A stretch of 48,109 nucleotides of DNA from Spizellomyces punctatus DAOM BR117 (lineage: Eukaryota). Below, in pieces: positions 1 to 35,597 of the stretch. The stretch lies in NCBI GenBank assembly GCA_000182565.2, contig KQ257452.1. One strand, 5' to 3'. Each line of letters opens with the position of its first letter. The first letter of the stretch is position 1. A program made the position numbers and the translations under genes. The notes under the pieces are model-generated. The model made no database searches. It worked only from the letters and a program-made list of their open reading frames with translations, and was not told the origin of the DNA.

Positions 1-1399
<1,399 letters not shown>

Positions 1400-1692: not shown

Positions 1693-2491
1693 CTATGAAG
1701 TGGCATCCATTGTGCCTTGTCTGGGAATGCGGTACCGTCGTCGCGCTATGAAGTTCATGGAGATTAGTTTTATGATCGATACAGTGCAAGCTAAGAGGAA
1801 GGGCAGCATCCATACCATTAATGAACCAATCATTAAGCTGTTTTGCGTTTAATTCGGTCTCGTTGCATAACTCTTCTTTCTCGGCCTCACTTGGGTAAGG
1901 GTTAGCGCGATGCTGATAATACCACTGAAATAGTATTTGGGTTTTCCACGGAGGATGGTTGGGACGTTTCGGTCGACCGCTCTCGCTGACCGACCGCTGT
2001 TGACCAGACGATCCTTCCATTTGGCGTCCACGTGCTTCTGGTTCTTCCTGAGTTCCAAGTCCTTTGACGGGTAATCCCTCTGTATCATGAAATTCTGTGA
2101 GGGAGCTGCTTTCCACCGACTTGGAACGGCGCGAAAGAGGTGACGTGCGCTTTCGCTTCAGGTCAGAATTAACGAAAAAGGTGTCCATTTCGTCGCACAA
2201 ACGATCGAGCGTGCGCTCGAAATCATTATCATTTTGGGCTATCGAACGATACAACGCAATTTGTTGTCTAGATGCCACTGCAATTACAGACAAGATAAAG
2301 TGATCCAGGCTGTCGCGCGAGCGCCGCGAGCGGTCGATATGCCTCTTATTTGCTTTCAGGAGGTTAGTGACCAGGTCAAGACGTTCGGGAATGTCATCCG
2401 GCGTTAAGGAATTTATAGCAGTATCTCGCAATGTCAAAAGGCGGTCCGCTACAGGAAAGAGTGGATGCTCCTCTGCTTCGACGATCTCCAT
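1693..2491 (-). CDS. TALE-class homeodomain transcription factor
   Basis: WYYQHRANPYPSEAEKEEL...QLNDWFIN. Removing a GTATGG..TAG intron (1815-1746) restores WFINARRR and a stop at 1693-1695. The PYP insert marks TALE class. Likely ATG 2491 (MEIVEAEEH). Confidence 0.88.
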
Positions 2492-2766
2492 GAAGGGCAA
2501 TTTTTGGCAGAAAGTGAAGTTTGACAGGGACCGTAGGAAGTCCCAGCTACGTTTGGCGTGTGTGGTACCAGCACGTGCCCCGTGTGCCACATGTCCCTGT
2601 CGTGATTACATGATACGCATCTTCCTGCGCGCTCAGAGGATGTCCTAGATCAACCACTCCATTTTTTGAGGTACTGGAGACCGAGTCCTATCTCGCCACA
2701 GAGTGAACCCACAGTGCGGCGCATGCGTGCCTGCTGACCATCAGAAAGTCGTTCACAGTTACGGGC

Positions 2767-3675
2767 ATGAGTGAAACTCCGCTACAGTTTGCGTCCCCTC
2801 CGGCGTTAGCTTCGTTCGCTTCGGTTCCTGAACGTGCATCTTTTCCTGGATCGTACGTTTTGGTTCCGCAAGAATATCTTCCACTGATGGTAGAGCATTT
2901 TCCTTCCCCCTTCTTTAGCTGCGTAAAGGATGTCTACGCAGCTGGACCAGTTGTGCCTCAGACAATTTTGACGGAAACTCCTCTCAAGTCGTCAAAGAGT
3001 CAGATGGAAGCCTTTGCCTCTATAGTAGCGCCAGTTGATATTAGCCTTAACAGTATGACGAACCAAATTGATTCAGGTGGAGGTGGACCTGGTGACAATG
3101 CAAGCAACCATCCAAAACCGCAGCTTTCATTAGAGCTCGGGAACAGCTCAGGTGTCAACAGAACCAAGAGTAAACCTAGGGCCGGACCATCACACAAACC
3201 AGAGGCACTGAACAAGAGGTGGCGCACCCCCCGGCCACTGAACCCCTTCATCATATATCGGCGTGAAAAGCATACGTACATTCTGGCTAGAAATCACGGA
3301 ATACCAAATAACGAAATTTCCAAATTGGTAGGCCAGATGTGGGCCAACGAGCCGGAGTCGGTCAAATCCGTGTATCGTCAGCGCAGTGAAGAAGAGAAGC
3401 GAATACATCAATTGAAGCACCCTGGCTACAGATTTGCTCCAAGAAAACACAAACCGAAGCGGCCAAAGAAGTCAATTTCATGCCAAGAGTTTAAAGACCG
3501 ACCCGCTGGACATCAAAATTTAAGAGCAAGTCGTGCTCACTCAAATGAAGATAGCGTGGAAGAGAACACGAGCTCATTGTCGGCAGACTTCATCCATCCG
3601 ATACTGCCATCCCATCAATGTGTTTATGCTTACCACCCCTCTCAGCTGCAAGCTACAGTCCCTTTCGAGACGTAG
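2767..3675 (+). CDS. MATA/SOX-TCF-type HMG-box transcription factor
   Basis: TPRPLNPFIIYRREKH...IPNNEISKLVGQMWANEPESVKSVYRQRSEEEKRIHQLKHPGYRFAPRK: a single sequence-specific HMG box with basic tail. Intronless ORF. Confidence 0.92.
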   Translation: MSETPLQFASPPALASFASVPERASFPGSYVLVPQEYLPLMVEHFPSPFFSCVKDVYAAGPVVPQTILTETPLKSSKSQMEAFASIVAPVDISLNSMTNQIDSGGGGPGDNASNHPKPQLSLELGNSSGVNRTKSKPRAGPSHKPEALNKRWRTPRPLNPFIIYRREKHTYILARNHGIPNNEISKLVGQMWANEPESVKSVYRQRSEEEKRIHQLKHPGYRFAPRKHKPKRPKKSISCQEFKDRPAGHQNLRASRAHSNEDSVEENTSSLSADFIHPILPSHQCVYAYHPSQLQATVPFET

Positions 3676-4122: not shown

Positions 4123-6956
4123 TTAAACATCTGCCGCCCATAGAGGGTTGGTTTCTTCCCATCCTTGATCTTCGGTTATACTGCCTGTCAGACAAGGGCC
4201 ACTGACCATGGTTGGATCAACCGTATTGGCGCAGCCAGCATTCTGCAATACCGATAGCCCTACGGCGGATTGGGGAGGTGGAGTGAGGTGGGTCTTCCAG
4301 GTTTCCCTTTCATTGGACCACGTAATTTGTCCTTGAGGTCGGAAAGATGCACCGCGAGCACTGACATACGGCGTTCCTACTTGCACGATATGGTGGGGTC
4401 CAAGGTAAAGACCGGCTGAAGCCATCGGAAGAGTGGCATCACCCGGAGGGGTGAGAGTTCCGAGCGGAGGGGGTTGAGGCAAATGTGTTGAAGCATCGTA
4501 GACAGGGGGAGAAGGGTACACAGCGTACGGATTTGAGAGGAAAGGAACGGGGTTCGCGTACATAAGGGTGTCCGGCGGAATGAACCTAGAGGCTTGGTCT
4601 GCTGTCAACGAGTATTAATGAAAATTCGGACGAGCCAGAGCCGGGTATCCACCAGTAAATGCAACAGTAATTTACCTCCAGCTAGATGCCCGGGACTGTT
4701 CTCCGTCTTATTGCATAAAAGAATGCATTAGCTTGAAATTGCAACGACTCAAAATTTTCTCCATTAGCATACCACGAAGCCGATTCTTCCCCTGTTCCCG
4801 CCAAGTTGTAGGGCGGCCGGGAACGCATGTCGTCGGGGCGACAGAAAGGTAGCGCTTCGCGTCACTCCCGTAGATGGCGGAGTCCGAGCAAATGTAGCTG
4901 TGCTTGCGAAGCCAACAGGCCCTGCAAAACCGCCAGGACCACGCAAGGAGGATGATAAAGCGGCATAGGGTATCACACTTGGACTGTAAGGCACAGCTGG
5001 TGGTCTTTGGACACGGAACTCGCCTGTTTCACGAAACTGGACACGTATAGTCCTATCGAGCCACAACTTTCCGTTCTAGGTTTTTCCTTCAGTCAGTATC
5101 CATGGGGGTCAGAATTCGCGGTTGCAGTTACCTACTTCTTCTTGAATCGCATGTTCAGGCGTAGCTTCGTCCAAAAACTTGATAAATGCAAAAGCTGGAC
5201 GAGAATCTGCCGATAGTGGTCAGCATTTGAACTAAGTTTGCCGTTTGATTGACAACCTACTTGGTCCCGTCGGATATCGGTTAATAAGCTGCAGTGATTG
5301 AATTGGCCCGTATTGGCCAAATTTTTCTTCCAACAATTCGCGAGTAATCACCGCTTGGTTGAGCTGGCCTACGAATATGCTCAATCTGTCAATGTCGACA
5401 TTGCCCCGATCAAGATTGGCCGCCCTGTGTAGATGATGATGCAGAGAATGTTGTGGACGGATATCAGATCCGGAAGGTGAGCAGAGCTGGTCATGAGAAA
5501 ACGAATAACCGCTAAACTGCGAGGGGGGCAAGACACAATAGTTGTCTGACCATTCGGCCACCCATTTCAGGTTCGTGCGAAGCCCCTGTTGTGCAACGGG
5601 TAAGGCAAAGAGACAGAACGAGAAAGTACAATGCCAATGCCAACCAAGTACGCTCTAATTGCATCTTCTCGAAAACAGAATTTGACGAAGCCGCACCCTT
5701 TACTACGACCAGTTTGATAGTTCTGAAGAATGGTCAAGTCTTCGACTGGTCCATACCGTTCCAGAATTTGACGTAATTGCTAGGGAAGAAGAACGCTTAC
5801 AACCACCTGTCCTAAATGGAAACCTGAGTAGCCGTCTGTACTCACACTAGTCACCGCTTTCACATCGTTCGCATCTTGGACATACTCGGCAACGGATTTG
5901 TTGAACTTGGCAATGAAAAGAGTGCGATTTACACGGGCCTGTTCAACGCGTATGTGTCGCCCATCAATGACTGTATTATGTGCCTCCACGAGTGCATGCT
6001 TAGAGTCTTCCACGCTCTGCATCATTAGCGCTTTAGAATTGTGTCCCGGTAAAGCGAATGAGGTTGGACAATCACCTCGAATTGAACGAAAGCGTATGGC
6101 CTAGCCAGCCAGTCTTTAAGAACCTTAACATTCATTAGTTTTCCCCATCTTTCGAAGTGGTTGGTAACGCTTTCATGAAGTTGTTCATCCGTTCTCGATG
6201 ACGAGAGACTAGGCATAGGACATCAACCTACTACGCAAGTGACCAAACCGTAAGGAATTACCTGGCCACAAAGAGACACGCCTGCGGAAGTCCTTTATTC
6301 GGATATCGCACTCTGAGCTCTGCAGTGCGAACATCTGCATCCAGTCTTGAAAGTGGTAAGATGCCTCCATCGTCTCCCGATGCTTCGGTGATACGATTGT
6401 TTGGAACATCCTGTTGTGCACTCGCAGCTAGACAGGGTGTGCATTGAGTAGAATCATATTGACATATTCATATTTCTTACACGTACCAGATAGATGTTGT
6501 TCGCACGGGGAAGAGCTGATTGGACACTCGTCCTTTACGTCATCCAAAACAGATGTGTGCTCTAAATCTACCGTTATGGGCGATTGGCGTTCCATCCTCC
6601 AACCCTCCTGGGGTGATGAATCGAAATGCGGATAAACGTTTTCCGCCTGCTCAGGAGTAGCAGTTCGTGTCGTGGTGGCGCTATGGGAGCGATTCATAGT
6701 GACAGATGGCATCTGCCGACGAGTTCGTATCGTGTCGTCCGGAGATTTATGGAAGGAATTATGGCGACGCACAGAACTGGGTAGTGTACGCAGATCGTTC
6801 ACGATAGTTAGCATAGGACTACATGAACGAGTGCGGGGTGTAGGTGTCGCTGATTTGCTACGAGAAACAGCCGAGTGGTGCATGAATGAGTTTCCTGTCG
6901 AATTTTCCCCAGAGACTAGCTCAACAGTTGGCTTCTGAACGTCAAACGTTCCGTGT
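4123..6956 (-). CDS. RIM4: Rim4-like meiotic RNA-binding protein (three RRMs, low-complexity C-terminus); first exon probably further upstream
   Basis: VTNHFERWGKLMNVKVLKDWLARPYAFVQFE, IDGRHIRVEQARVNRTLFI, GCGFVKF, SIFVGQLNQ, AFAFIKF match my recollection of yeast Rim4 RRMs. Multi-exon; branch/acceptor CTAAC..CAG at about 6957 implies an upstream exon (maybe about 7380-7518). Confidence 0.75.
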
Positions 6957-8051: not shown

Positions 8052-8949
8052 ATGCAAGCTATTAAGTGTGTTGTAGTTGGTGATGGGTACGTATGTTGTT
8101 GAGCTGTGCCAACTGGCTGGGCTAGTTGGAAAAGTGAGGGTCCATATTAACGTAATTTTTTACTTTCCCCTCCTTTTTTAAATCGATATAGTGCTGTAGG
8201 GAAAACTTGCCGTATGTAGTATTTCAGTTTCTTAAATCATCTCCTGTGAACCACCGCAATAACCAGTTGAATCTCACGCTGGCAGTCCTTATCAGTTACA
8301 CCACGAATGCTTTTCCCGGGGAGTATATCCCAACTGTGTAAGTACCGCACTTGTGCGTCTTTTCAGTACTCGTATTGAAGCGCAATGACCACGTTTTCTT
8401 TTTTGAAAAAAGATTTGACAACTACTCAGCAAATGTAATGGTGGATGGAAAGCCCATTAATCTCGGTCTATGGGACACTGCTGGACAAGAGGACTACGAC
8501 CGACTGCGCCCACTATCATACCCGCAAACCGACGTTTTTCTCATTTGCTTTTCGTTAGTCAGTCCCCCGTCATTCGAGAATGTCAGGACAAAGGTGGCAT
8601 TTTTTTTTTTGGACGTGTAGTGGCCGCAAGACTTCTGACATCAATTGTTAACAAATAGTGGTATCCTGAGATAAGCCATCACGCTCCAAACACCCCTATC
8701 ATTCTCGTGGGTACCAAACTAGACCTTCGTGAGGACAAAGAAACAATTGAAAAGTTGAGAGAGAAGAGGATGGCTCCGATCACTTACCCGCAAGGACTTC
8801 AGATGGCGAAGGAGATTGGCGCTGTCAAATATCTCGAGTGTTCCGCATTGACCCAGAAGGGCTTGAAAAACGTGTTCGATGAGGCAATCCGTGCCGTATT
8901 GTGTCCCGTAGTACCGTCAAAGCGAACCAAGAAGTGCTTGATTCTGTAG
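8052..8949 (+). CDS. RAC1: Rac-family small GTPase
   Basis: [54 protein letters not shown]-terminal KKCLIL CaaX. Several short introns. Confidence 0.96.
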
Positions 8950-14099: not shown

Positions 14100-16832
14100 A
14101 TGCAGGAACTCAAAGTGTCCGACGTCTTGCGCCGTGCTTCCACATACAGTTTAGAGCAGGCAGCCAAAGGACTTGCCTCGGCGACGCACGGGTTCGGAGC
14201 TGGCACCTTACAAGTGGATGGGTCATGGTTTAAGGACTCGACTGGTAGAACGATAATGCTCCGAGGCGTCAATGTTTCTGGAAATGCGAAGTTACCGTCT
14301 ACTCCATATATGCCGTCACATGTTCGAGACGGTTTCTTCGATGATGCTACCGTCAGCTTTGTTGGAAGACCCTTTCCGCTAGCGGAGGCCGACGAACATT
14401 TTGCGCGCTTACACTCATGGGGGTTTAACTTCGTACGCCTTAACATAACGTGGGAAGCTTTGGAGCACGCAGGACCGTAAGTGGCATGTGATACTCTTTA
14501 TCTATAGAAGGATCCAGTTCGGGTTAGGAAAACTAACCCTACAAATATCGCAGAGGAATGTACGACTTTGAGTTCATGACGTACATCACAGAGTTGCTGC
14601 AAAAGGCGAAGAGACACAAGTTTAGAGTCTTCATCGATCCCCACCAAGACGTGGTAAATGCAACTACTTTCAATTCAGCCAACTATTGGAAGCTACTAAG
14701 TTTAATGTCTCATTGCAAATGTACTCAGTGGTCGCGTTTTAGTGGCGGATCTGGCGCACCTGGGTGGACTCTACGAAAGGCTGGTTTAGATGTGACAAAG
14801 TTTGCCGCAACGAACGCCGCCATCGTACATAATACATACCCTGACCCCGATAACTACCCGAAAATGATCTGGCCGACTAATTACTACAAACTCGCTGCTG
14901 CCAGTATGTTCACGCTCTTTTTCGGTGGCAAGACCTTTGCTCCTTCTTGTATGGTAGATGGGGTGAACATTGAAGAATTCCTACAGAGTCACTACTGCAA
15001 TGCATTCGCCACTCTGGCGAAAAAGATACAAGAGGTTCCAGGGTTGGAAGATGACGTGGTTATTGGTTACGACACGTTGAATGAACCCAGTCCTGGTCTC
15101 ATCGGATGCCCCGACCTCTCGAAACTTGATCCGCGGCAAGAACTTAAGAAAGGATTGACACCGACCTTCTTCCAGGCAATGCTTCTAGGGGAAGGAATCA
15201 AATGTGATGTCGATGTATGGGAGTTTACCTCATTCGGGCCGCGTAAACAGCGTACAGACACGGTAGATCCGGCCGGTGCTTCTGCATGGCTTCCGCAATC
15301 CGGTGGTTGCATATGGGCTGGTAATGGTGTCTGGGATCGTACAACGGGCACATTACTGCGACCCGAATACTTTTCCAAACATCCGAAGACCAATCAACCC
15401 GTCGATTTTCTCTCTGACCATTGGATGCCATTCGTAAGACGGTTTACAAGTGCTATTCGTGGGGTCTATCCCGGTGCGATTATGTTTATCGAACCTCCGG
15501 TCAATGAGCATCCACCGGTGTGGAATGAAGCAGCAGGAGACCCGGTTGGCAGGTTGTGCTATGCTCCGCATTGGTACGACGGGCTCACTTTAATCAGCAA
15601 ACATTTCAATACCTGGTATAATGTCGACTACATTGGGTTCCTTCGCGGAAAATACTCTCATCCGGCATTTGGACTGAAACTTGGGGATGCGGGTATCCGA
15701 GCTGGTTTCAAAAGTCAGCTCAAGACCTTACGTGATGAAGGGCTAGAATACATGGGTATACTTTATGATTCCTAAGATGTCGCACATGGCGTAGACTAAC
15801 GATTTGGAGATAGGTGAATACCCATGTGTGTTCGGTGAGATAGGAATTCCATATGATATGGATAATCGTATCTCATATCTCACCGGAGACTACACGGCGC
15901 AAACACAGGCTCTTGACTGCAATATGCACGCGCTGGAGACCAATTTACTTAATTTCACCCTTTGGAACTATTGTCCAGACAATAGTCATCAATGGGGGGA
16001 TGGTTGGAATGGGGAAGATTTGAGCATCTGGTCGCCAGCCTTCCCGAGAAGGAAGGGGTCCGCCATCGCGGGGAAAGCCAATGTCAAGATACCGCCTATG
16101 GATGTGAACAGAGTTGGTCCCTTGGAATCGCACATCGGAAAGACATCCTGCATGCATGAGGAAGAAGCTGGGAGCATTGAAGGGGGCGGGACTCCAGTTG
16201 GGCAAGGTGCTTTCGTGAAATCCAGCTCTTGAGAGATAAAAACTTACAAGATTGACATGTCGCTTTTTCCAGACTCAGCCTACCTTGATCAAGGTGGCCG
16301 CGCAATACCAGCCTTCGCCCGTCCCTACCCCGTCCTCACGCCAGGGACCCCGATGTCCCTTCATTTTGATCTACATAGTGGCGTTTTCACTTATACCTTT
16401 CGACATAGCCTGTCATCTGGCCTCTGGGCGACGCCGGGGTTGGATCCTTCTTCTAAAGCATTAGAAACTGAACTTTACGTCCCACGCGAGCACTATCACA
16501 ACGCAGAGCAAGATGCAGAGGTGTGGGTTAGCGAAGGTCTTCTGCGATGGGACCAGACAGAACAGAGATTGTATTGGAGATGCGGCTGTGATCCAGGTTT
16601 TAAAGCACAGACAACACAGTCCGGTAATAATGAAGCGAAGAGGGAAGGGGGAAACTACGATCTTGGACCCGGCGTGGAGCATACTATTGTGATTAAGAAG
16701 CGAGTACCGGGGGCCAAGCCCCTATCCGTCTTAGCAAAGGAGGCTAGGGAGAAAAGATTGGAAGGGACAGATGAGAAAGACGCGCGAGTTGCACTATGTC
16801 CAACGCCAACAAATGAATGCGTCATATTATAG
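14100..16832 (+). CDS. GH5 endoglycoceramidase-related (EGCrP/Egh1-like) glucosylceramidase or steryl-beta-glucosidase
   Basis: LRGVNVSG, TWEALEHAGP, IDPHQDV/WSRFSGGSGAPGW, acid/base TLNEP, APHWYDG, nucleophile FGEIGIP, WGDGWNGEDLSIW, RPYP. Multi-exon; ends CVIL. Confidence 0.9.
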
Positions 16833-21200: not shown

Positions 21201-21753
21201 TGTAACAGGCTAGCAGGGACAAGAAGACAACAGAAAACTAGGGAAGACTTGGTTACTCTTGTTATTTTCCTTTGAGGGGCCTCAGAGAGGTCCTCTTTTT
21301 ATAGACAAAGGGGCTGACAAATGCTATATCCTAACTACCCAATCAGATCTCACCCACATCATCCTAAACTATTTGTCAGCCTATTGCACCATTTGCAACC
21401 AATCAGAACTCATACNNNNNNNNNNNNNNNNNNNNNNNNNNNNNNNNNNNNNNNNNNNNNNNNNNNNNNNNNNNNNNNNNNNNNNNNNNNNNNNNNNNNN
21501 NNNNNNNNNNNNNNNGTGTCGCTGCACCGCAACTGATTTATTGGTGGCGGTACCGATCTCTTCCTTTTCCGCACTGGCTCGGGCCTCCACAGGTTGTACG
21601 AGGCACGCTGAAATCTAATGCGCCAATTGCCATTCTCCGAACCGGTTTTTTCGGTCGCGGTAACCCAATCGGTGGAGTTGGTCACGCGATTCGTGCTTCC
21701 CGCGTCCGATTTGGGCTTACTCGCGATCTCTCGAAGACGTCCTCGTCGTTACA
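21201..21753 (-). mobile_element. LTR-like sequence(s) spanning an N gap, TGTAAC...GTTACA termini
   Basis: tgtaac at 21201 and gttaca ending 21753. Minus-strand TATAAAAAG (about 21295-21303) and AATAAA (about 21537-21542). Flanks taggg and ataat do not form a TSD. Confidence 0.55.
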
Positions 21754-23309: not shown

Positions 23310-23513
23310 ATGGAACTGAGTGCAATAATCCTTTACTAAATTTTAATAAACAAAAACCTTTATACTAACGCAATTCGATGCAAATATTCTGTACTTCGAT
23401 GCACAGCTGAAATTACGTCATCCTCTGCAATTTTCGATGCAAATCTTCTTGCATATAAGTCCGGAACGCGGACGCCTTATTTAATTTTAATTCCTTTCTG
23501 AATTAAGTTCAGA

Positions 23514-26462
23514 ATGGCTCAGCAATTTAGAATGGTAAAATGGCTCGGCATCACATGGTTAGGCAACCTCGAAATACCTGGTGTCCAAAAGGCTACTGGC
23601 GCTCAGGATAAAGTTCTCGCAGAACTGCCACCGGATAAGGTGCCCCTTTGGTGTCACCATCCTAAAAAAGGACGTCTATGGGGCACAGCCACGACGGAGC
23701 AACTTATAGAGATCACAGCCACCAATCATTACATATATGAGATTCTTGTATTCGCCCCTTATCGTCACCACAAAGTCTACTTTGACATTGACCCCCCTAA
23801 ACAGAAGAAAGGTGAAGAAGAGGGTACACCCATCTCCTTGAATGATGCTAAGAGTATTATTTTGCAGTATTTTCCGCATGCGCGCTTTCAGATTTCTGGT
23901 CATGAAGGTTCCTGGCACATCATCCTGTCTAACTACTATGCGGGAAATCTGGAATCTACCGCAGTCCTCCAACAGATCGCCAGGAAACACGGCTGGGATG
24001 TTAGTGTATACTACAGGAACAGCAATTTCAAGTGTATCAACCAAAGCAAACCCGGTCAGGCAGTGCAGGACTACATCGAGGGTAACACCGCGAGGAGCAA
24101 GCACTTTATCCTCCATGACTTTGACGAAGATGCAATCGACATCAGCACCATGACCTTTGACCTGGGCGAACTTCCTGCCGTCACATCTCTGAGGAAGAAA
24201 AATGCCGCAGGTCGAACTCAATCTCAGAGCATCGACATCCTCTCCATCCCCCAACTTGATTTACCCGTACCCGACAACTATGACCCTAAGAACAACCTTC
24301 AAAAACTCAGCATGTTGCCAAATCCTCCCAGGGGAAGTCCCGGAACCCTTGATCACCACACTTGCTGGAAAGTCATGTGTTGGTGTCGGCAAGTAGGGAT
24401 TGAATTCCCTAAGTTCTGGGCATGGAACAAGCAGAAAGACCTTTCTCCCGCTCGGATGCAAAAGTTCTACCAGGCTTGGAACTCTGCAACACGGTACAAC
24501 GTATCACCTAAGTTTATGGATACGCTGCTGGAACGCTTCTACCCGGACATCAACGTTTCAGTCGTGACGAAGAAGTTCCAGCGCCAGTTTGACATTCCAG
24601 AGTTGCACAAAGTTGATCATGACTATTTTGAAGATACCGATATTGCACCTCCCATATACATTCCCGATGGGGTAGGTAATCCTTTCGGTTGGAATGTAAT
24701 CTTGAATCAAGCGGCCAAAAAATTTACCCTGTTAGGCGGAGGTATGGGGAGGAACAAAACGGGGGCTGTTGCTAGATACATCAGGAGGTACGGTCAGAAT
24801 CTGCGAACCCTATGGATATGCCCCCGTATTACTTTAGCAGAAAACACTGTAGGCAGGCTTGCGGAGGAATGCTTAGATTTCCTGTGTTATCGTACATGCA
24901 ACACCTTGCAGAAGATCGAAGGCAAGATGGATGATTCTCAGAACGTCATCTGTAGCATTCAGTCTCTGCATTATCTCACCGAAATCTTCGACATCGTAGT
25001 CGTGGATGAACCGGAAACCGTCTTCACCTCATACTTCGGCAATGCCGAAACCCACCAAGCAAACCTCTGGAAGAACTGGGAACAGTTCATCGCCTTCTGC
25101 CAGATGGCAAAAAAGGTCATCTTCATGGATGCCTTCACGACGAATCTTTCCTTGAATGTTGTCAAGGGAATCATAGAGAACGGCTGGGAGAGGCAGGAAT
25201 ACGAAGTCCTCGATACTTCCTTGCCTCCCTTACCCCGCAAGTTCGTAGAGATCAAACTTTACGCGGATTGGATCTGCTCTGCTCTGCGTGATCTCAAGGA
25301 GGGCAAAAAATTGTATATTTTCACTCCTTTCAAACGAGGTAAGCAAGGTGTTGATGCCATCCTTAAAACCATCTTGAAAACATTTCCTGACTGGGAAGAA
25401 GGAACTGACATCTTCGCTTACTATGCCGAAAACGAAGCAGAAAAGAAAAGGCTGAGTAATGTCGAAACCATTTGGGAGCGGTGCCGAGTTGTCATCACAA
25501 ATGTGTCCATTTCGGTTGGTGTCAACTTCAACAAAAAGGATGTCTTCGACCGCATCTACGGATATTACTCACCCTTCATTCCTGTGCGAGACTTTATACA
25601 ATCCCTCCACCGCGTCCGTCACCCAAAGGATTCCACCATGTTGCTCCACCGGGACTTCAGGCGATCTTTTGGCATATGCAACAATCGGAGGCCAGCCGAA
25701 ATGCCTGATTGCCTCATCTTTCGTCAGATGGTGTCCGACTTAGAAATCGAATACAATGCTAACAATAACACTAAAAAATGGGAGACATTCAACATGTTCT
25801 GCCGCAAGGCTGGCATCGAGATACATCCCGTTTCTACTGAAGCCGGACTGGAGAACAATCAGGAATATCTGAAAAGTTTCCCCTCAAAGAAAGACCTTGC
25901 GTTCTACTGGGGCAACATAGCAGACATCGAGTCCCACCAGGCGGAACAGTATCTTTACATGAGTTATCGCAACGATGCCTCCCTGGAGCAATGCCTTCAG
26001 TTGGCAAAGTATTTTTTCAAGAAGCGGTTCTCCGAGGATACTGAGGATGACATTATGGCAGAAGTGTGGAGTGCTAAGCCCGACTTTATCGACAAGGTTA
26101 TAGAACTCAGATCGAATCCCTCGCATATCATCAACCGCGTGTTTACCGAAAACGGGGTGACACTGGGCGATGGTACTCCCTTACCTAACCAGATGCAGAC
26201 TTCGATACCGGTGGAGGAAATCAAAACTCAGTTCAAGTTCGACAGACGCAGGGAGGAAGGAACAGGCTTAGTGGCACAGATGATCAATGCATACTTTGGG
26301 ATGAAAGCCTATTACCAAAAAGACAGCAAGAGGAAGCAGAAGCAAAATGAGAACAAGAGGAAACGCGAGCGCCTACATGAAACCAGCCAGACATTCATTG
26401 ACTTAGCGGAAGTGTGTGTAGCGTATCATAACAAATGGTTATGCATGGAACCAGAGGGATGA
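23514..26462 (+). CDS. AEP primase(-polymerase) + PriCT-2 + UL9/origin-binding-like SF2 helicase fusion
   Basis: AEP motifs VYFDID, SWHII, DVSVY; W-rich PriCT-like WKV..FWAWNKQ; helicase GGMGRNKT, VVVDEPE, MDAF, SISVGVNF, QSLHRVR. Confidence 0.85.
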   Translation: MAQQFRMVKWLGITWLGNLEIPGVQKATGAQDKVLAELPPDKVPLWCHHPKKGRLWGTATTEQLIEITATNHYIYEILVFAPYRHHKVYFDIDPPKQKKGEEEGTPISLNDAKSIILQYFPHARFQISGHEGSWHIILSNYYAGNLESTAVLQQIARKHGWDVSVYYRNSNFKCINQSKPGQAVQDYIEGNTARSKHFILHDFDEDAIDISTMTFDLGELPAVTSLRKKNAAGRTQSQSIDILSIPQLDLPVPDNYDPKNNLQKLSMLPNPPRGSPGTLDHHTCWKVMCWCRQVGIEFPKFWAWNKQKDLSPARMQKFYQAWNSATRYNVSPKFMDTLLERFYPDINVSVVTKKFQRQFDIPELHKVDHDYFEDTDIAPPIYIPDGVGNPFGWNVILNQAAKKFTLLGGGMGRNKTGAVARYIRRYGQNLRTLWICPRITLAENTVGRLAEECLDFLCYRTCNTLQKIEGKMDDSQNVICSIQSLHYLTEIFDIVVVDEPETVFTSYFGNAETHQANLWKNWEQFIAFCQMAKKVIFMDAFTTNLSLNVVKGIIENGWERQEYEVLDTSLPPLPRKFVEIKLYADWICSALRDLKEGKKLYIFTPFKRGKQGVDAILKTILKTFPDWEEGTDIFAYYAENEAEKKRLSNVETIWERCRVVITNVSISVGVNFNKKDVFDRIYGYYSPFIPVRDFIQSLHRVRHPKDSTMLLHRDFRRSFGICNNRRPAEMPDCLIFRQMVSDLEIEYNANNNTKKWETFNMFCRKAGIEIHPVSTEAGLENNQEYLKSFPSKKDLAFYWGNIADIESHQAEQYLYMSYRNDASLEQCLQLAKYFFKKRFSEDTEDDIMAEVWSAKPDFIDKVIELRSNPSHIINRVFTENGVTLGDGTPLPNQMQTSIPVEEIKTQFKFDRRREEGTGLVAQMINAYFGMKAYYQKDSKRKQKQNENKRKRERLHETSQTFIDLAEVCVAYHNKWLCMEPEG

Positions 26463-26682: not shown

Positions 26683-27039
26683 GTTGTTAAGGTGTCACTC
26701 AGAATCAGAATCATCTTGACGCATGAAGCGATCAATGGCTTCTGCTAACTTCTGTTCCTTGTACTTGATGTAGCAACGTAAACATCTGATATGTCGAGCC
26801 ACCCAAGGTATCACCTCTAAGCAGTCACGACATGGTCTTTCTCTGGGATTTCCGGACATGTTGTATATTGACATTAAATCAGCTTTTAAATGTGACGTCT
26901 TTCGTTCCAGATAGAGGACAACATTTAGTATAATAACAGCTACATGTAGAGCTGCTTATGTAAAGACCCCTAAAAATCCGTGCATCGGTGCACAAAAAGC
27001 TAAACACATTCTCCGCTCAATACACTAACTCCTCATGCC

Positions 27040-29169
27040 ATGGACGCATTAACAACTCAGGAACAGCGTGTGAAGGCGACATGGTTCATCATCTGTCCAG
27101 ATGTGGACAATACATTCTTCGAAACGGCAAAAGCAATGCACCAAATCCTGACCGGAAAGTTGTATAAAGTACGTTACAAAACTTCAGATACATACCTGTA
27201 CGAACGCTGGAATATTGCAAGACGGACAGGATACAATTTTTCCACTGCGGGCAAAGTCATCATCGAGCTGGAGAAAACAGTATCTCAAGAGGACATGCCT
27301 ACAACACTTGGCACCATCTTGATGATAGAGAAGCTGTCAAAGGAAAACAGGCTACCATACGAGGAAGTCTGGCATAAAACCATCCAATTTTTCGGACGAC
27401 GACAAGATGTGGTGGCAGTCCAGATGCGCAACGCACTAGAAGAAAGCCAGCGCGGAGCATGTCAATTAGAAGAAGAGGAGTGCCAATCGGACGATCGTAT
27501 TGATTCAGCAGTTGTCATAGATTCAGCAATAGACCCTAGCGGTGATGCTTCTGTAGTAGAAGGAGGGGAGAATGGATGGAGTAGACGATTAAGAAAAAGA
27601 ACTAGAGACGCAATAACCGATTCCTCCTCGTCGGAATCCGAAGCAGATACAGCACCCGAAGAGCGCTTGCTAAAGCTGTCTTCGACTTACGAGCATGAAT
27701 ACCTAACTCCGCAGTGGTTATGGGAGAAGGTGTACCAATTAACAAATGGAATTGATCTCGATCCCTGTTGGCACGTAGAGTCAGTGGTGCGGGCAAAGAA
27801 AACATATGGGATGCAGCTAGATGGCTCCTTCATAAACGCTCTTCATTTAGAAAAATGGGACTCGGGCGAGTGGGTATGGTTGAACCCCCCAGGACATGCC
27901 CTTTTTCCTTCGCACCTCGGGCACCCAGACAACATAAATCTTCATGGACAGTTTTGGAATAAGGTGTTTCTTGAGATGTCGAAGGGACACATTGAGCGGA
28001 TCTGTGCCATCGTCCCTAATGTTGGATCTTCAACATGGCTAGCAACACTATTCAAAGAAGGCCTCATCTGCTTTCTTCACAAAAGAATAGATTGGGTGCT
28101 GTCATTAGCAGCTAAGGAGAGGAGGATGAAAAATCCGAAAACCGCCCGTGATCTCTTTCCTCGACTCATAGTTTACCTCGACAGCGACCCCACCTACCCA
28201 TACCAACAGAGATTCGCAGAGATCTTTAGTGATGTAGGATTCATTCCCGGCTATAATCTGAGGATGTGGAAACAACCGCAGCCGTTGAGGCACATCCGTT
28301 ATCTCAGTGTATGCTCTGGTATTGGTGTTGGCGAACTTGCTCTTCAACATGTCCTTCCCAGCGCGGAATGTGTAGGATATTTCGAAGTCGACAAAGACGC
28401 TTTAGCCGTGTATCAACATCACTTTCCTAATCATACGAACTTTGGGGATGTCACTAAAGCAGATGTTGGGAAATTGCCGGACTTTGACCTTCTTATAGGT
28501 GGCATCCCTTGTCAGCCGTTTTCGACAATGGTTTCTAATCATCACATCCGGAAGAACCATGATGATCCAAGGGCTGAACCTTTTAAACACTATGTTCATA
28601 TTCTCAAAGCGAAGAAGCCCCGTTGGTTTCTTATGGAGTGTGTGAGTTACATGGAAAAAGAAACGGAGCAACGGATTAGTCGAGAGATTGGAGTGTTGCC
28701 AGTAGCGATTGACAGCGGTAATTTTGCAGCACAATCAAGAAGACGGAATTATTGGGCAAACTGGTATATTCCCCAACCGATACGAAGTAAAGGTATTAAA
28801 CTGGAAGATATTGTTGAAAGATCTGTTCCACCGAATCCAGCAATCAAGAGGAAAGAATTGAAAGAATTCCACCCTCCGCTCGACACAGTCTCTTGTTTGA
28901 TACGCCCGATGGAAAACGGCAAAAAAACGGGGACAGTCTCGTTAAGAACCGATGGAAAATCAAACTGCTTGTTGACTACAGATTCTTATCAAAGCACATT
29001 AGTGATTAGTGGGGGTTTTCGGTTCTTGACGCACTTAGAACGTGAAAGGTTACAGGGGCTTCCGGATAATTATACGTCGATGGTTAGCTCTAACAAAGCA
29101 AGGCTGAGAATAGTTGGAAATAGTTTCAACTTGCCGACGATCGAGTACATTTTACAGCAGATGATGTGA
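27040..29169 (+). CDS. Fused DNA methyltransferase: phage Dam-type N6-adenine domain plus C5-cytosine domain
   Basis: YLTPQW..IDLDPC..W..WLNPPG (Dam-like; NPPY altered), then SVCSGIG, FEVD, GDV, GGIPCQPFS, MECV, QSRRR, ERLQGLP, GNS (C5 motifs I-X). Confidence 0.88.
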   Translation: MDALTTQEQRVKATWFIICPDVDNTFFETAKAMHQILTGKLYKVRYKTSDTYLYERWNIARRTGYNFSTAGKVIIELEKTVSQEDMPTTLGTILMIEKLSKENRLPYEEVWHKTIQFFGRRQDVVAVQMRNALEESQRGACQLEEEECQSDDRIDSAVVIDSAIDPSGDASVVEGGENGWSRRLRKRTRDAITDSSSSESEADTAPEERLLKLSSTYEHEYLTPQWLWEKVYQLTNGIDLDPCWHVESVVRAKKTYGMQLDGSFINALHLEKWDSGEWVWLNPPGHALFPSHLGHPDNINLHGQFWNKVFLEMSKGHIERICAIVPNVGSSTWLATLFKEGLICFLHKRIDWVLSLAAKERRMKNPKTARDLFPRLIVYLDSDPTYPYQQRFAEIFSDVGFIPGYNLRMWKQPQPLRHIRYLSVCSGIGVGELALQHVLPSAECVGYFEVDKDALAVYQHHFPNHTNFGDVTKADVGKLPDFDLLIGGIPCQPFSTMVSNHHIRKNHDDPRAEPFKHYVHILKAKKPRWFLMECVSYMEKETEQRISREIGVLPVAIDSGNFAAQSRRRNYWANWYIPQPIRSKGIKLEDIVERSVPPNPAIKRKELKEFHPPLDTVSCLIRPMENGKKTGTVSLRTDGKSNCLLTTDSYQSTLVISGGFRFLTHLERERLQGLPDNYTSMVSSNKARLRIVGNSFNLPTIEYILQQMM

Positions 29170-29263: not shown

Positions 29264-30265
29264 ATGCAACAAGACCCCCAACCTATTGATGCCGAGTCGG
29301 CTCTATATGAAACGCTACATGCCATCCTTGACAGGATTCAGCAGTCACCCAACACCAAGAAACAGGATAAATCGCGTCTAAATCAACTCAAAGGCAACAA
29401 TCTTCTTTCCTTGTTCCAAACACCTGAGATACTCATTAGCAGGATCAAGGAAAAATGGACAAACGAGCATACATATTACAATTATATCAAATTGGTGTCA
29501 AAAATAGCACGCAATGCTACGAGGGCTGAAAAGGCAATGATCCTTCATCTAGCAGAGGATGCAATGGACGACCTTGATAGTCATTTTACAGACACATTCC
29601 ACTCTCACTTCAAGAATGTGACATTCGAAAGGTTCAAACAGTCAAAAAATGAAGCAGCATCCCAAGAGATGACCCAGGAAGATATCACCAATTATGTCCC
29701 TTACAGCGAACTCTTAGCAGGATTGAAAGTCGCTTTGACATTCATCAATGAGGGAAATATAGTGGAGCATCAATTTCTAATTGCTCTTGGGATGAACCTG
29801 GATGCAGATAAAATTCGTAGATGCGATATTTTCAAAGCGATGATTAGTGAAGACGCTAATGTTACGGTGAACAACGAAGGGAAAACTGTCTTCATCCGAA
29901 AATGCAATAAGACTGGTGAAAAGAATGTCCTCATTCAGATGGGAAACACCATTCAACCATACGTTAACATGTTAGCAAATGTCAGAAAGGGCAATGGACA
30001 GGATCGTCTTTTTCTAAAACCTGATGGAAGTATTCCAACCGATGCCTGGTATAGCGACGAATTTAGTAATGCTATGGAACGAATGTTTGGAAAGCGTGTA
30101 ACACAGAAACGCCTTCGAATTTCAGTGGGGATGCATCTTTCTGAAAGGGATAATGGAGATCACGCTTATCAGAAGGAAATCGAACGTAGGATGGGTCATA
30201 CCTATGCTGTTCATCAGCGCTATTACAATCTGTTCAAGTCATTTGTAGAACAGCCTAGGAATTAG
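29264..30265 (+). CDS. Tyrosine recombinase (PLV/NCLDV type)
   Basis: IRRCD (Arg I), NKT (Lys), KRLR (HxxR equivalent), RRMGHTYAVHQRYY (His and catalytic Tyr). Confidence 0.8.
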   Translation: MQQDPQPIDAESALYETLHAILDRIQQSPNTKKQDKSRLNQLKGNNLLSLFQTPEILISRIKEKWTNEHTYYNYIKLVSKIARNATRAEKAMILHLAEDAMDDLDSHFTDTFHSHFKNVTFERFKQSKNEAASQEMTQEDITNYVPYSELLAGLKVALTFINEGNIVEHQFLIALGMNLDADKIRRCDIFKAMISEDANVTVNNEGKTVFIRKCNKTGEKNVLIQMGNTIQPYVNMLANVRKGNGQDRLFLKPDGSIPTDAWYSDEFSNAMERMFGKRVTQKRLRISVGMHLSERDNGDHAYQKEIERRMGHTYAVHQRYYNLFKSFVEQPRN

Positions 30266-31494
30266 TGACTATTTTCATAATCGTTTACTGCATCTCTTGC
30301 ATTACGTATAAGTTCACTTCTCGGCTCCCAAGTTGACTGATCACGGTCATATCCTCTCCATAATACTTCATATTCTACTACTTGTCTTCCACCAACTCGA
30401 CGTGTTCTTTTATCTAACAATGCTTCAACTTCATACTCACCTTCTGGTACTTCCTCTTCATCGTCTTCAATCTCAGGTTCAACTTGCGGAGCCTCCCCAG
30501 CGGCATCCTCTTTAGGAATTAGACGCAATTGCCAAGCCGGATATAGACCTGGCAGTATGTGATTAGTATTGACAGATTTGATTTTATAAGAGTTCATGTA
30601 GTTAGGGTGAGGATTAGGAACAACGGCTGTTATCTCATACTTCTCTTCAGAAAAGTAACCCATTTTAGCACGCCTTTTTATATCCGTCCCTTGACCTGAT
30701 ATGTACTTTCTGACAACATCACCTACATTGAATGGAGGTAGTACCTTCACACCCTTTCCTTTAGTCCTAAGCGCACGTTGGGCTTGAGCCGCTCCTTGAA
30801 CATCTGCCTCCATCTCTTGTACCATCCGAAGTTTCTTACCACTGCCAAAACTTACTGTGGAATTAATGTTCTCTACAATCTGTGGCAACATACTCACCCA
30901 GTCTCTATTTCCTAAACGCATCCCCATGAATAGCGCTCGCTTTATCGTGCCATTCATCCTTTCTACCTGTCCATTGGTTTGAGGGCTTCCTGCTTTCGAA
31001 TAACGCCATTCAATACCGTGTTCCTCTGCATACTGTGGAGTGATGCCTTGGTTTTCATTTCCATTATCTGATTGAATACCATGAATCTCGACACCATCCT
31101 CGATGAGATCTTTTAGAAAATTGACAACACTCTGTTGTCTTGTATCTTTCAACGCTTTCGCATAAACACATTTAGTTNNNNNNNNNNNNNNNNNNNNNNN
31201 NNNNNNNNNNNNNNNNNNNNNNNNNNNNNNNNNNNNNNNNNNNNNNNNNNNNNNNNNNNNNNNNNNNNNNNNNNNNNNNNNNNNNNNNNNNNNNNNNNNN
31301 NNNNNNNNNNNNNNNNNNNNCCTTCACCATGCTAACAAGGTCCTTTGGGAAATCTCGCTCTCTGGGTACTTTGCTTTGTAAAGCGCGTACAAACGATCTC
31401 TGCCCATGTAAGCATGCTCTCTATAGTAGAGCTGCTTTAAACGCTGCTCATCTTCTCGTGTTATATCTTTCCAGTTAGGCTTCCTTTCCTCCAT
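30262..31494 (-). CDS. Retroviral-type (rve, DDE) integrase with C-terminal chromodomain, interrupted by N gap
   Basis: IQSDNGNE, SPQTNGQVERMNGTIK, FNVGDVVR; chromodomain YEVEALLD..YEVLWRGY..STWEP; N-terminal LYY..MGRDRLY beyond gap 31178-31320. Likely ATG 31494. Confidence 0.9.
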
Positions 31495-31595: not shown

Positions 31596-32300
31596 CTAAA
31601 AGTAATCATGAAACCCGCTGGAGTCACAGTAACGATACATTCCTTTAGCATCACTAGCATCTCTATTGATGTAGGCAAACGAATAAGGTTCTTTGGTGCA
31701 CTCGGTGAGAAATGTTAGAACTTCTTTATCATCTTTGTAGGCGGAAGCAAGTAACTTTGCTAAAAGTTTCATGTCTTCTGCATTGTTTTTAAACACCACC
31801 CACTCGGTGGTGCAGTTCTTCATTTTACGTGAAAGTTGTCCGGTTACACTCTGGATGGCTACAATATTTCCTATATTGAAATGCCTCCCTTTTGTATAGA
31901 GTTTCGATAACTCCTTGTTGAGTTCTTTACTTTGCGCAGAATCACCAGCGTCGTCAATGAATAATAGAAGTGACTTCTCAGGCGTTTTCTTCTGTTCTTC
32001 TACAATTTTAGCGATGGATGCATTGGAAACCTCGTCTGTAAAGTAGATATTTTTATGTTTTGTGGTTTCAGCCAGTACCTTCACAGAAGCATCGTATTCG
32101 ACTGTGTCGGACATGATAATGACTCGATCGTGTAATTTAGCATAGACATCCTCAATCAGACCGCAGACTAATGCACTTTTACCACTTTTCCTCGGAGCGA
32201 CAAGAGTTGTACATAGAGGCAGTGATGCCAGGTCACGTGGAACACGAGGATCTCTCTTCTTTTTCCCTACGGGAAAGATTGGGCGTGGTTTATAGGACAT
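31596..32300 (-). CDS. A32-like FtsK/HerA genome-packaging ATPase
   Basis: Walker A APRKSGKS, Walker B LLFIDD, GRHFNIGNIVAIQ. Confidence 0.92.
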   Translation of the reverse strand: MSYKPRPIFPVGKKKRDPRVPRDLASLPLCTTLVAPRKSGKSALVCGLIEDVYAKLHDRVIIMSDTVEYDASVKVLAETTKHKNIYFTDEVSNASIAKIVEEQKKTPEKSLLLFIDDAGDSAQSKELNKELSKLYTKGRHFNIGNIVAIQSVTGQLSRKMKNCTTEWVVFKNNAEDMKLLAKLLASAYKDDKEVLTFLTECTKEPYSFAYINRDASDAKGMYRYCDSSGFHDYF

Positions 32301-33088: not shown

Positions 33089-33670
33089 ATGGAAGAGCAA
33101 AATCAAAATCATCAAGAATCGAGTGCCGTTCCACAAGATAATGTAGAACCACCCGCTGAACAAGCACCTGTTCAAAAAGCAGAAATTATACCAGAACAGC
33201 CTCCAAAGCAAAAGGTGAAACGCCCGATGACGGACAAGCAACGGGCTGCATTGGAGAAGGCGCAGAAAGCGAGGGCTGAACAATTGCGCCTAATGCAAGC
33301 AAAACGCGAGAAGGAACGGAAGGAGCAGGATAAACAAAGGAGGATCGATGAGGCCAAACGCATCCTTGAAGAGGAGAAGGAACAGAAGCGGTTGGCGAGG
33401 GAAGAACGACGAAACACAAAGCGAGGAAAGAAGGCAACACCAACTAGGAGCAAGAGATCCAAACCAGCAGCAAAGGCGCAGCCAGCAGCAATACGTCCAT
33501 CTAAAAAAAAGAGCGTAATTTTGAAATTCGGTGATGATGAACCATTCTTTGACTCTAGACCATTNNNNNNNNNNNNNNNNNNNNNNNNNNNNNNNNNNNN
33601 NNNNNNNNNNNNNNNNNNNNNNNNNNNNNNNNNNNNNNNNNNNNNNNNNNNNNNNNNNNNNNNNTGTTGA
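33089..33670 (+). CDS. Basic coiled-coil protein (possible core/DNA-condensing protein); 3' end in N gap
   Basis: KRPMTDKQRAALEKAQKAR; K/R/E-rich. Confidence 0.6.
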   Translation: MEEQNQNHQESSAVPQDNVEPPAEQAPVQKAEIIPEQPPKQKVKRPMTDKQRAALEKAQKARAEQLRLMQAKREKERKEQDKQRRIDEAKRILEEEKEQKRLAREERRNTKRGKKATPTRSKRSKPAAKAQPAAIRPSKKKSVILKFGDDEPFFDSRPXXXXXXXXXXXXXXXXXXXXXXXXXXXXXXXXXXC

Positions 33671-35532: not shown

Positions 35533-35597
35533 CTTGATTTATAGAACAGAAGAGATATTATTTTTTCAGCTCTACATAGCAAAGGAAAAAACCTAGT

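Follow-up and report, generated by a model that had tools for sequence, protein, structure and literature searches.

Gene content of the locus

Two neighbouring genes of Spizellomyces punctatus DAOM BR117 that encode putative DNA-binding proteins lie head to head near the start of the analysed window, a stretch of 48,109 nucleotides of contig KQ257452.1 (Table 1). One is SPPG_01922, with a TALE-type homeodomain on the minus strand; the other carries an HMG box and is read on the plus strand. An earlier note had described the two as a divergent pair about 275 bp apart between ATP1 and RIM4, and as the candidate core of a chytrid mating-type locus. The start codons indeed flank exactly 275 bp, and the flanks agree in kind, the ATP synthase gene ending at 1399 and the multi-RRM gene on the minus strand running from about 4123. 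The stop codons of the two genes set the limits of the pair, at 1693 and 3675.

Table 1. Features of the divergent gene pair and its flanks (positions within the window)
Feature	Position	Strand	Description
ATP synthase alpha-subunit gene, 3' part (left flank)	1..1399	+	With introns; Pfam ATP-synt_ab and ATP-synt_ab_C on four ORF pieces
SPPG_01922 (TALE homeodomain gene), exon 2	1745..1693	-	ARRRYRIPRQGTMDATS + stop TAG
SPPG_01922, intron	1815..1746	-	70 nt, GTATGG...CATAG, phase 1, read from sequence
SPPG_01922, exon 1	2491..1816	-	Codons 1-225 and first base of codon 226
Region between the two start codons	2492..2766		275 bp, GC 0.54; both 5' UTRs and shared upstream region
HMG-box gene	2767..3675	+	Single exon, 302 aa (P0001); first in-frame ATG after upstream stop
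HMG box	3226..3432	+	Residues 154-222, then basic tail PRKHKPKRPKK
RRM gene (right flank)	about 4123..6222	-	Multi-exon, P/Y-rich C-terminus; RRM_1 matches

The homeodomain protein

Translation of SPPG_01922 starts at the ATG at 2491-2489 and gives a product of 242 aa. The spliced translation of the window is identical, in every letter, to the database protein SPPG_01922 (P0004) of S. punctatus DAOM BR117. The intron interrupts recognition helix 3 of the homeodomain, at WFIN/ARRR. The homeodomain occupies a C-terminal position, from residue 177 (nt 1963) to residue 231 (nt 1729). Upstream of it, residues 13-108 are predicted to be helical with low confidence (AlphaFold, single sequence, mean pLDDT 48.5), and residues 109-180 form a disordered linker rich in S, R and E. 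In this AlphaFold model, made without an alignment, the homeodomain reaches a moderate pLDDT of 67-88 and the N-terminal helices 43-54.

The TALE class that the earlier note had assigned to this gene is borne out by the Pfam model Homeobox_KN (E = 1.1e-18, 67.2 bits, cut-off 24, profile 1-40 of 40) and by ungapped alignments over 62 residues with TGIF1, PKNOX1 and TGIF2LX (E 3e-13 to 5e-13). The general Homeodomain model also matches (E = 3.2e-6). The three extra residues that TALE homeodomains have between helices 1 and 2 are present, and the aligned stretch includes ..NPYPS.. as well as WFINARRR in helix 3. Solved structures served as the only references for the class of both the homeodomain and the HMG box. 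Among them, MEIS follows at E 5e-12 and PBX/Exd at about 1e-10. A word-indexed protein search also returned two TGIF2-like proteins with 43 % identity. SPPG_01922 is thus, as predicted from its domain, a small TALE protein whose homeodomain is like those of TGIF, MEIS and PKNOX.

Membership in the MAT-type HD1 class was considered and rejected: MATalpha2 is the lowest-scoring of the 29 listed structure matches (3.5e-3, 20 bits), against 1e-13 to 1e-12 for the solved structures of TGIF, PKNOX and MEIS. The Pfam models Mating_N, Mating_C and Ustilago_mating do not match SPPG_01922, even at E <= 10. In a language-model atlas, basidiomycete HD1 mating clusters score 0.80-0.83 against it, which is under the threshold for a lead. 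Pfam likewise finds neither MEINOX, PBC or SOXp nor any other family-specific flanking domain in SPPG_01922 or the HMG protein.

The HMG-box protein

The exact 302-aa HMG protein is present in the protein collection. Its gene is presumably SPPG_01923, on the basis of consecutive numbering only: the id adjoins SPPG_01922 in a published supplement, which does not give the link from id to sequence (PMC12695648). The Pfam model HMG_box matches over its full length (E = 5.2e-17, 62.5 bits, cut-off 25.4, profile 1-69 of 69), and the alpha-box model MATalpha_HMGbox stays under its cut-off of 28.1 (E = 0.18, 11.6 bits).

Among solved structures, SRY/SOX give the box its best matches (3e-11 to 1e-7), with 2.7e-9 for SRY when the box alone is compared and about 1e-7 for SOX2, SOX17 and SOX11. 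LEF1 follows at 1.3e-4, and the HMGB1 box inside a chimera reaches only 13.6 bits. The box therefore lies nearer to SRY/SOX than to HMGB-type boxes, as is characteristic of sequence-specific (SOX/TCF/MATA) HMG boxes, and it has the SOX-like end HP.Y.F.PR. These similarities place the protein, as a predicted DNA-binding factor, in the SRY/SOX/fungal-MAT-like sequence-specific class.

The best 150 HMG homologues share the consensus PRPPNAFILYR..NN.ISKI.G.MW..H...YP.YKY.PRK, which we take to be the fungal MATA-type pattern. The MATA_HMG subclass, to which the earlier note had assigned the gene, contains many non-MAT paralogues, so membership in it would not show a MAT role. In the language-model atlas the nearest cluster is 'Mating type protein (Fragment)' from Ascomycota, at 0.92; this is a lead only, as chance first matches of at least 0.9 occur 4-10 % of the time.

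Similarity ends at the box in almost all homologues. Just 2 of the 3,525 HMG matches have E <= 1e-30, and only that of the S. 'palustris' protein extends beyond the box region. The regions outside both DNA-binding domains, in SPPG_01922 as in the HMG protein, are fast-evolving and lineage-restricted. A fusion of homeobox and HMG box occurs in none of the 130 proteins scanned among the best 150 HMG homologues, the 20 proteins of more than 640 aa having been left out.

An N-terminal module of the YFIPEGFEPVL type was also considered for the HMG protein. In the homologues that bear it, the module spans about 45 residues and lies 65-130 residues upstream of the box. A pattern scan had suggested that it is shared with 18 of the 150 homologues, and residues 31-41 of the HMG protein match YFIPxGFxP only as a loose pattern. 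The profile test was negative: a profile built from the 18 module-bearing proteins matches 21 of the 150 listed homologues, and neither P0001 nor P0002, at E <= 10. The module was rejected for the Spizellomyces proteins. In the tree of HMG boxes, P0001 falls beside the fragments P0009 and P0007, with support 1.0, and not within the main group that bears the module.

Shared upstream region and genomic context

The pair can share upstream control, because the two genes are transcribed apart across 275 bp. In this region (2492..2766), TGACAG occurs once, at 2522, and a SOX-type core not at all; a single TGACAG is not significant, since the rate across the window predicts 0.17 in 275 bp. The head-to-head spacing is not special either, because nearby intergenic gaps are all short: 293 bp from the stop of the ATP synthase alpha gene to that of SPPG_01922, 275 bp between the pair, and about 447 bp from the stop of the HMG gene to that of the RRM gene.

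The neighbours identified in the window are the genes for ATP synthase alpha, the RRM protein, a Ras GTPase, ribosomal P0 and a GH5 hydrolase. Composition and codon usage of the pair are ordinary, with GC3 values of 0.49 and 0.46 in the range of weakly biased neighbours (0.43-0.49). No flanking repeats or cassette-like duplications were found around the pair. A virus-like block in the window gives no capsid protein in a sequence search against solved structures.

Pfam was run on stop-to-stop ORFs. In the whole window, 86 ORFs have at least 100 aa; of these, 63 were scanned, the 23 overlapping or antisense ones being left out. Shorter ORFs (55-99 aa) were scanned between 3.7 and 23.4 kb, all 112 of them. 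Among the ORFs scanned there is no second homeobox gene, whether an HD2-type or a TALE partner, no TPT or RNA helicase (DEAD/helicase-C), and no SLA2, APN2 or pheromone-receptor domain.

The relative S. 'palustris'

For the HMG protein, the searches gave a single close relative, SpCBS45565_g05890 of S. 'palustris', an orthologue with 88 % identity over 238 residues. Because of this identity and the same N-terminus, the second species carries the same HMG allele type. For the homeodomain, no annotated orthologue was found in S. 'palustris' among proteins of 123-424 aa by word-indexed searches, which are too insensitive for chytrid orthologues. An HMG orthologue without a homeodomain orthologue could reflect presence/absence variation.

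Methylation in vegetative cells

MAT genes of yeasts are expressed vegetatively; 6mA and expression in vegetative cells are compatible with MAT genes and do not exclude them. In Spizellomyces, 6mA marks expressed genes, as stated in the excerpted text of PMC12695648. The supplement of that paper gives gene-level 6mApT fractions for clonal asexual culture (multinucleate/zoospore): 0.048/0.041 for SPPG_01922 and 0.016/0.016 for SPPG_01923, next to 0.038/0.032 and 0.015/0.017 for the neighbours 01921 and 01924. The fraction is below 0.002 in 14 of the first 24 S. punctatus genes tabulated there. In clonal asexual culture, both genes of the pair are thus marked by 6mA in the way expressed genes are. 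The supplements of PMC5364385 and PMC5415576 contain neither SPPG ids nor S. punctatus.

Interpretation of the gene pair

Divergent pairs of homeodomain and HMG regulator classes are a hallmark of fungal MAT loci, and the most far-reaching reading of this locus is the core of a mating-type locus. The interval from the ATP synthase alpha gene to the RRM gene would then be idiomorphic or multi-allelic, and the TALE protein, the HMG protein or both would set mating identity, much as HD1/HD2, SexM/SexP or MAT1-2-1 do in other fungi. We consider this very unlikely. The regulator classes and the divergent layout fit it, as do the MATA-like consensus of the HMG homologues and the fast-evolving, lineage-restricted regions outside the domains; the homeodomain, however, is of the generic TGIF/MEIS kind, and neither an HD2-type partner nor known MAT flanking genes occur among the Pfam-scanned ORFs. 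The atlas points the same way as the consensus, with its mating-type cluster for the HMG protein as a lead and its HD1 mating clusters for SPPG_01922 under the lead threshold. S. 'palustris' bears on both sides: its HMG orthologue, with no homeodomain orthologue found in the size range searched, would suit idiomorphs, but the closeness of that HMG protein means one allele type in two species. Ordinary composition and codon usage argue against a mating-type locus. So does the fact that, to our knowledge, sex is not described in Spizellomyces. The homeobox clusters of Encephalitozoon are a precedent that failed, according to the excerpted text of PMC2866331. In favour of the reading, the literature, as far as searched, holds no characterised chytrid MAT locus.

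TALE heterodimers start the diploid programme in algae, and HMG factors of the Ste11/Prf1 type act upstream of mating genes. By analogy, the pair might encode non-polymorphic sexual or zygotic regulators, the same in all strains, that would switch on gamete, zygote or resting-spore programmes. This too seems unlikely: the same class arguments (TALE, SRY/SOX/MAT-like HMG) apply and a single allele type in two species and housekeeping flanks would be compatible with it, but both genes bear the 6mA mark of expression in clonal asexual stages and the Pfam-scanned ORFs include no TALE partner gene nearby. Homeodomain-HMG pairs also cooperate in animals, and by that analogy the two proteins might bind each other, or adjacent DNA sites cooperatively, and be kept adjacent for co-expression, regardless of which process they control. 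The common upstream region and the helical N-terminal region predicted with low confidence by AlphaFold in SPPG_01922 would accord with such a partnership, which we regard as doubtful given that no scanned HMG homologue is fused to a homeobox and that TALE and SOX sites are not enriched in the 275 bp.

On present evidence the pair is probably an ordinary pair of transcription-factor genes, adjacent by chance or for co-regulation, and not a mating-type locus. Two intact neighbouring genes would encode sequence-specific DNA-binding proteins, of which the HMG protein would bind DNA through the minor groove and bend it. The divergent genes may share upstream control elements in the 275 bp and may thus be co-regulated. 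Both proteins would regulate development or physiology during the vegetative life cycle (zoospore-sporangium), and they would have no role in mating identity. Their adjacency would be due to chance in a compact genome or to simple co-regulation.

The frequency of such an adjacency by chance can be estimated. A chytrid genome may be taken to have roughly 9,000 genes. In Batrachochytrium dendrobatidis there are about 10 HMG-box genes per genome, according to the excerpted text of PMC3056290. If about 10 of roughly 9,000 genes encode HMG boxes, any one homeobox gene would sit next to such a gene in about 0.2 % of cases; chance adjacency is therefore expected in one to a few per cent of genomes.

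The TGIF-like homeodomain, the lack of a second homeobox among the scanned ORFs, the housekeeping flanks, the short gaps, the ordinary GC3, the 6mA and the Encephalitozoon precedent count for an ordinary pair; against it count the uncommon combination of homeobox and HMG box, the hallmark classes, the lineage-restricted regions and the S. 'palustris' pattern. Nothing examined shows that SPPG_01922 and the HMG gene control sex. Indirect evidence speaks slightly against a dedicated sex locus and refutes nothing.

Significance

A locus with both regulator classes in an early-diverging lineage would bear on whether the ancestral fungal sex determinant was homeodomain-based, HMG-based or both. A chytrid sex-locus core made of a TALE homeodomain gene and a MAT-type HMG gene on one bidirectional promoter is improbable here. 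If it were true, it would follow the same logic as yeast MATalpha (alpha2 with the HMG-derived alpha1) and MTLa (a1 with a2), and the pairing of homeodomain and HMG box would date back to the base of Fungi or close to it. The failure to find a homeodomain orthologue in S. 'palustris' would in that case be an early sign of presence/absence variation resembling that of idiomorphs. If the two are merely neighbouring transcription-factor genes, the result is ordinary annotation. The candidate pair is cheap to test, because S. punctatus lends itself to genetics; the reference list of PMC12695648 includes a paper on transformation.

Comparison with known systems

In Saccharomyces cerevisiae, MATalpha consists of the divergent genes for alpha2, with a TALE-type homeodomain, and alpha1, with an alpha-box. 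The S. punctatus pair resembles it in having a TALE-type homeodomain gene and a gene related to the HMG superfamily head to head with a short promoter between them, and SPPG_01922 resembles alpha2 in being a small protein with its homeodomain near the C-terminus. However, the partner here has a canonical HMG box, not an alpha-box (MATalpha_HMGbox E = 0.18), the homeodomain is only distantly similar to that of alpha2 (3.5e-3), and the candidate pair is known from one isolate. Candida albicans MTLa, like the ancestral MATa of Saccharomycotina, combines the homeodomain protein a1 (non-TALE, HD2-class) with the HMG protein a2. The likeness lies in a homeodomain gene and an HMG-box gene in one locus, whereas the homeodomain here is TALE and that of a1 is not; the pair here is known from its sequence alone.

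Basidiomycete HD1/HD2 loci (Ustilago b, Coprinopsis A) also have divergent regulators that include a TALE protein of the HD1 class, as outlined in the excerpted text of PMC2866331. Here, by contrast, the partner is an HMG-box gene and not HD2, and the Mating_N, Mating_C and Ustilago_mating models do not match. The mucoralean and microsporidian sex or sex-related locus (TPT, HMG SexM/SexP, RNA helicase) shares with the present one a sequence-specific HMG factor as the candidate, according to excerpts of PMC2866331 and PMC3056290; unlike that locus, the pair has a homeodomain gene beside the HMG gene, and the Pfam-scanned ORFs contain neither TPT nor RNA helicase. It also differs from ascomycete MAT1, with no SLA2/APN2-type domains in the scanned ORFs and the alpha-box model under its cut-off. 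A comparative study of 2019 that used blastp detected no chytrid MAT genes and describes chytrid SLA2/APN2 scaffolds without an HMG or alpha-box gene, as far as the excerpted text goes (PMC6572847). As far as searched, the literature holds no characterised chytrid MAT locus.

Other candidates come closer in kind. The paired homeobox clusters of Encephalitozoon cuniculi were proposed as MAT loci, and three isolates showed no distinct alleles, as the excerpted text of PMC2866331 reports; the two-homeodomain locus of Rhizophagus irregularis is called only a candidate in the part of a review that deals with it (PMC10386755). Like both of these, the S. punctatus pair consists of paired regulators in an early-diverging lineage with no observed sex, here in one isolate. 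In their DNA-binding domains, the two proteins find their best structure matches in animal TALE proteins of the TGIF/MEIS/PKNOX group and in SRY/SOX, respectively, but the similarity to these animal proteins is limited to the domains.

Gene models and layout of the pair

The window comes from the nuclear genome of the chytrid Spizellomyces punctatus DAOM BR117: its homeodomain protein matches SPPG_01922 (1.9-Mb contig) with 100 % identity, and splicing and translating the window sequence exactly reproduces the 242-aa database entry. An identical entry for the HMG-box protein is present in the protein collection, and its N-terminus (MSETPLQFASP) is common to the orthologue of the sister species Spizellomyces 'palustris'. 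The start codons are separated by 275 bp (2492..2766). Both gene models and their spacing thus confirm the divergent TALE homeodomain (-) and HMG-box (+) genes about 275 bp apart described in the earlier note, whose outer coordinates, 1693 and 3675, are the two stop codons. Because short intergenic gaps are usual here, the 275 bp alone do not prove the shared promoter that it proposed. A single TGACAG occurs in this region, where 0.17 would be expected, and a SOX core is absent.

Coordinates of the gene pair, its surroundings, the virus-like block and the assembly gaps
Feature	Position	Strand	Remarks
Homeodomain gene start	ATG 2491-2489	minus	first Met of ORF, none earlier
Homeodomain exon 1	2491..1816	minus	window sequence
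Homeodomain intron	1815..1746	minus	70 nt, GT..AG; splits recognition helix 3 between WFIN and ARRR
Homeodomain exon 2	1745..1693	minus	codes ARRRYRIPRQGTMDATS + stop
HMG gene	2767..3675	plus	single ORF, 302 codons, first in-frame ATG to stop
ATP synthase alpha gene	left flank		ends 293 bp from homeodomain gene stop; Pfam
Multi-RRM gene	right flank		ends ~447 bp from HMG gene stop; Pfam
Ras-family GTPase	8342-8946	plus	Pfam
Ribosomal stalk protein P0	9306-10302	minus	Ribosomal_L10, RL10P_insert, 60s acidic tail
GH5 glycoside hydrolase + its C-terminal domain	14537-16829	plus	Pfam
Herpes_ori_bp-like helicase	23502-26459		1e-8
C5 DNA methyltransferase	27004-29166		PHROG 1.4e-44
Chromodomain + integrase-core ORF	30265-31323	minus	retroelement remnant inside virus-like block; adjoins gap 31178-31320
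Pox_A32/terminase-like packaging ATPase	31599-32300	minus	8.7e-8 / 7e-9
2039-aa ORF	37150-43266		virus-like block
Assembly gaps (N runs)	21416-21515, 31178-31320, 33565-33664		100, 143 and 100 bases; all outside pair

Genomic surroundings

Pfam scans covered 63 of the 86 window ORFs of at least 100 aa and, between 3.7 and 23.4 kb, each of the 112 ORFs with 55-99 aa. Among the scanned ORFs there was no second homeobox, alpha-box, TPT, RNA helicase, SLA2, APN2 or pheromone receptor; the whole of 17-23 kb was free of Pfam matches, as were large parts of 6.4-8.3 kb and 10.4-14.5 kb. GC content, GC3 and repeats around the pair are unremarkable: the two genes have GC3 values of 0.49 and 0.46, the RRM and GH5 genes 0.43-0.49, and highly expressed genes 0.55-0.61.

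Farther along, in DNA of lower GC (0.36-0.45), 23502-47474 carries long ORFs that appear to lack introns and have virus-like domains. This block is possibly a large DNA virus that has integrated, or else a Polinton-like element; it yielded no capsid protein, and the predicted fold of 35580-37061 is poor.

The homeodomain protein

The homeodomain lies at the extreme C-terminus of a small protein. It covers the entire Pfam Homeobox_KN model (E = 1.1e-18) and also matches Homeodomain (E = 3.2e-6); no further Pfam domain appears in the protein, even at E <= 10. Compared with solved structures, it gives gap-free alignments to TGIF1, PKNOX1 and TGIF2LX (3e-13 to 5e-13), followed by MEIS1/2 (5e-12) and PBX/Exd (5e-11 to 9e-10), and yeast MATalpha2 ranks last among the 29 matches listed (3.5e-3). 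Because of these Pfam and structural matches, the domain is assigned by sequence similarity to the canonical TALE class, of the general TGIF/MEIS kind, and the TALE label of the earlier note was right. An AlphaFold prediction from the sequence alone is poor (mean pLDDT 48.5). In it, residues 13-108 tentatively form four to five helices, 109-180 are disordered, and the three helices of the homeodomain span 181-230.

The HMG-box protein and its homologues

The protein has a single HMG box (residues 154-222, Pfam E = 5.2e-17), whose closest solved structures are SRY (2.7e-9) and SOX2/17/11 (about 1e-7), with LEF1 much farther (1.3e-4). When 1.84 billion representatives were searched exhaustively with HMMER, 3,525 matches had E <= 1e-3, and 391 of these had E <= 1e-10. 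Just two attained <= 1e-30: a fragment of 122 aa (59 % identity) and the S. 'palustris' orthologue; in the remaining matches listed, similarity is confined to the box and its basic tail. The consensus of the best 150 of the 3,525, PRPPNAFILYR..NN.ISKI.G.MW..H...YP.YKY.PRK, is the fungal MAT-type pattern, and the nearest language-model cluster is 'Mating type protein (Fragment)' (0.92), a lead only. The HMG-box assignment therefore stands and its MATA-like label is plausible; the label carries little weight, since that subclass also includes many non-MAT regulators. In a tree of the best 150 boxes, the Spizellomyces box clusters with two short fragments, P0009 and P0007 (support 1.0). No homeobox-HMG fusion occurs among 130 HMG homologues scanned.

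Several features of the homologues were recorded separately. A module of ~45 residues (..F.Y.S.....L......KG..YFIPEGFEPVLVP..) is conserved in 21 of the best 150 (including P0024, P0027, P0041, P0063, P0076 and P0102), 65-130 residues upstream of the box and often followed by a short D.RLPS motif; no Pfam family covers it. The N-terminal motif that the Spizellomyces protein had seemed to share with this HMG subfamily was rejected by a profile test, as that protein does not match the module's profile. P0013, P0017, P0019 and P0020 are long, high-scoring homologues with 3-5 tandem SOX-like boxes in near-identical repeats.

The S. 'palustris' orthologue (SpCBS45565_g05890) shares 88 % identity (210/238 residues); it has 239 aa and stops 2 residues past the alignment, while the S. 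punctatus protein runs 64 further. Word-indexed protein searches found no homeodomain orthologue of 123-424 aa in that species; the gap may come from incomplete annotation or from a true difference at this locus.

6mA marks in the asexual cycle

In clonal asexual culture, the published gene-level 6mApT fraction (multinucleate cells/zoospores) is 0.048/0.041 for SPPG_01922 and 0.016/0.016 for SPPG_01923, presumably the HMG gene by consecutive numbering; neighbouring genes are similar (0.015-0.083), and 14 of the 24 genes on the table's first page lie below 0.002 (PMC12695648). According to the text of that paper, expressed genes are marked by 6mA in Spizellomyces, and some retain it while silent in one stage. 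The pair is therefore in a permissive state during the asexual cycle and is probably expressed; for a sex-only role this is neutral to mildly negative.

Is the pair a mating-type locus?

The likeliest reading, favoured with moderate confidence, is that two ordinary transcription-factor genes, possibly co-regulated, lie side by side and are active during the vegetative cycle. A non-polymorphic pair of sexual-programme regulators and a physically cooperating pair both overlap with other readings, and each is unlikely. Less likely still is a true mating-type locus. In its favour, the non-domain parts of the HMG protein are confined, among the HMMER matches listed, to Spizellomyces and its closest relatives, and in S. 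'palustris' the word-indexed searches found the HMG orthologue but no homeodomain one of 123-424 aa. By chance, a homeobox gene would lie next to an HMG gene in ~0.2 % of cases, assuming ~10 HMG genes among the ~9,000 genes of a chytrid genome. The figure of ~10 is that for Batrachochytrium dendrobatidis (PMC3056290, in the part available).

Against it stand the generic homeodomain, not of the HD1/MATalpha2 kind, the absence of a partner homeodomain gene and known MAT flanks among the scanned ORFs, and a single HMG allele type in two species. Adjacency alone has misled before: the homeobox clusters of Encephalitozoon cuniculi, proposed as MAT candidates, had no distinct alleles in three isolates (available part of PMC2866331). 

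Among the chytrids analysed in the accessible portion of PMC6572847, a blastp search using MAT proteins of ascomycetes gave no match, and SLA2/APN2 scaffolds were without an HMG or alpha-box gene. Full-text literature searches gave no description of a chytrid MAT locus and no main text naming SPPG_01922 or SPPG_01923; subscription-journal papers and supplements may hold more. As a candidate bearing on an open question, the pair is reasonable and cheap; at present it is an unremarkable annotation.

Among known systems, MATalpha combines alpha2 with alpha1, and MTLa combines a1 with a2. The regulator classes and divergent layout of the pair recall both of these, and also the basidiomycete HD1/HD2 pair (PMC2866331, in the part available), a resemblance to three known MAT arrangements that speaks for a mating-type role.
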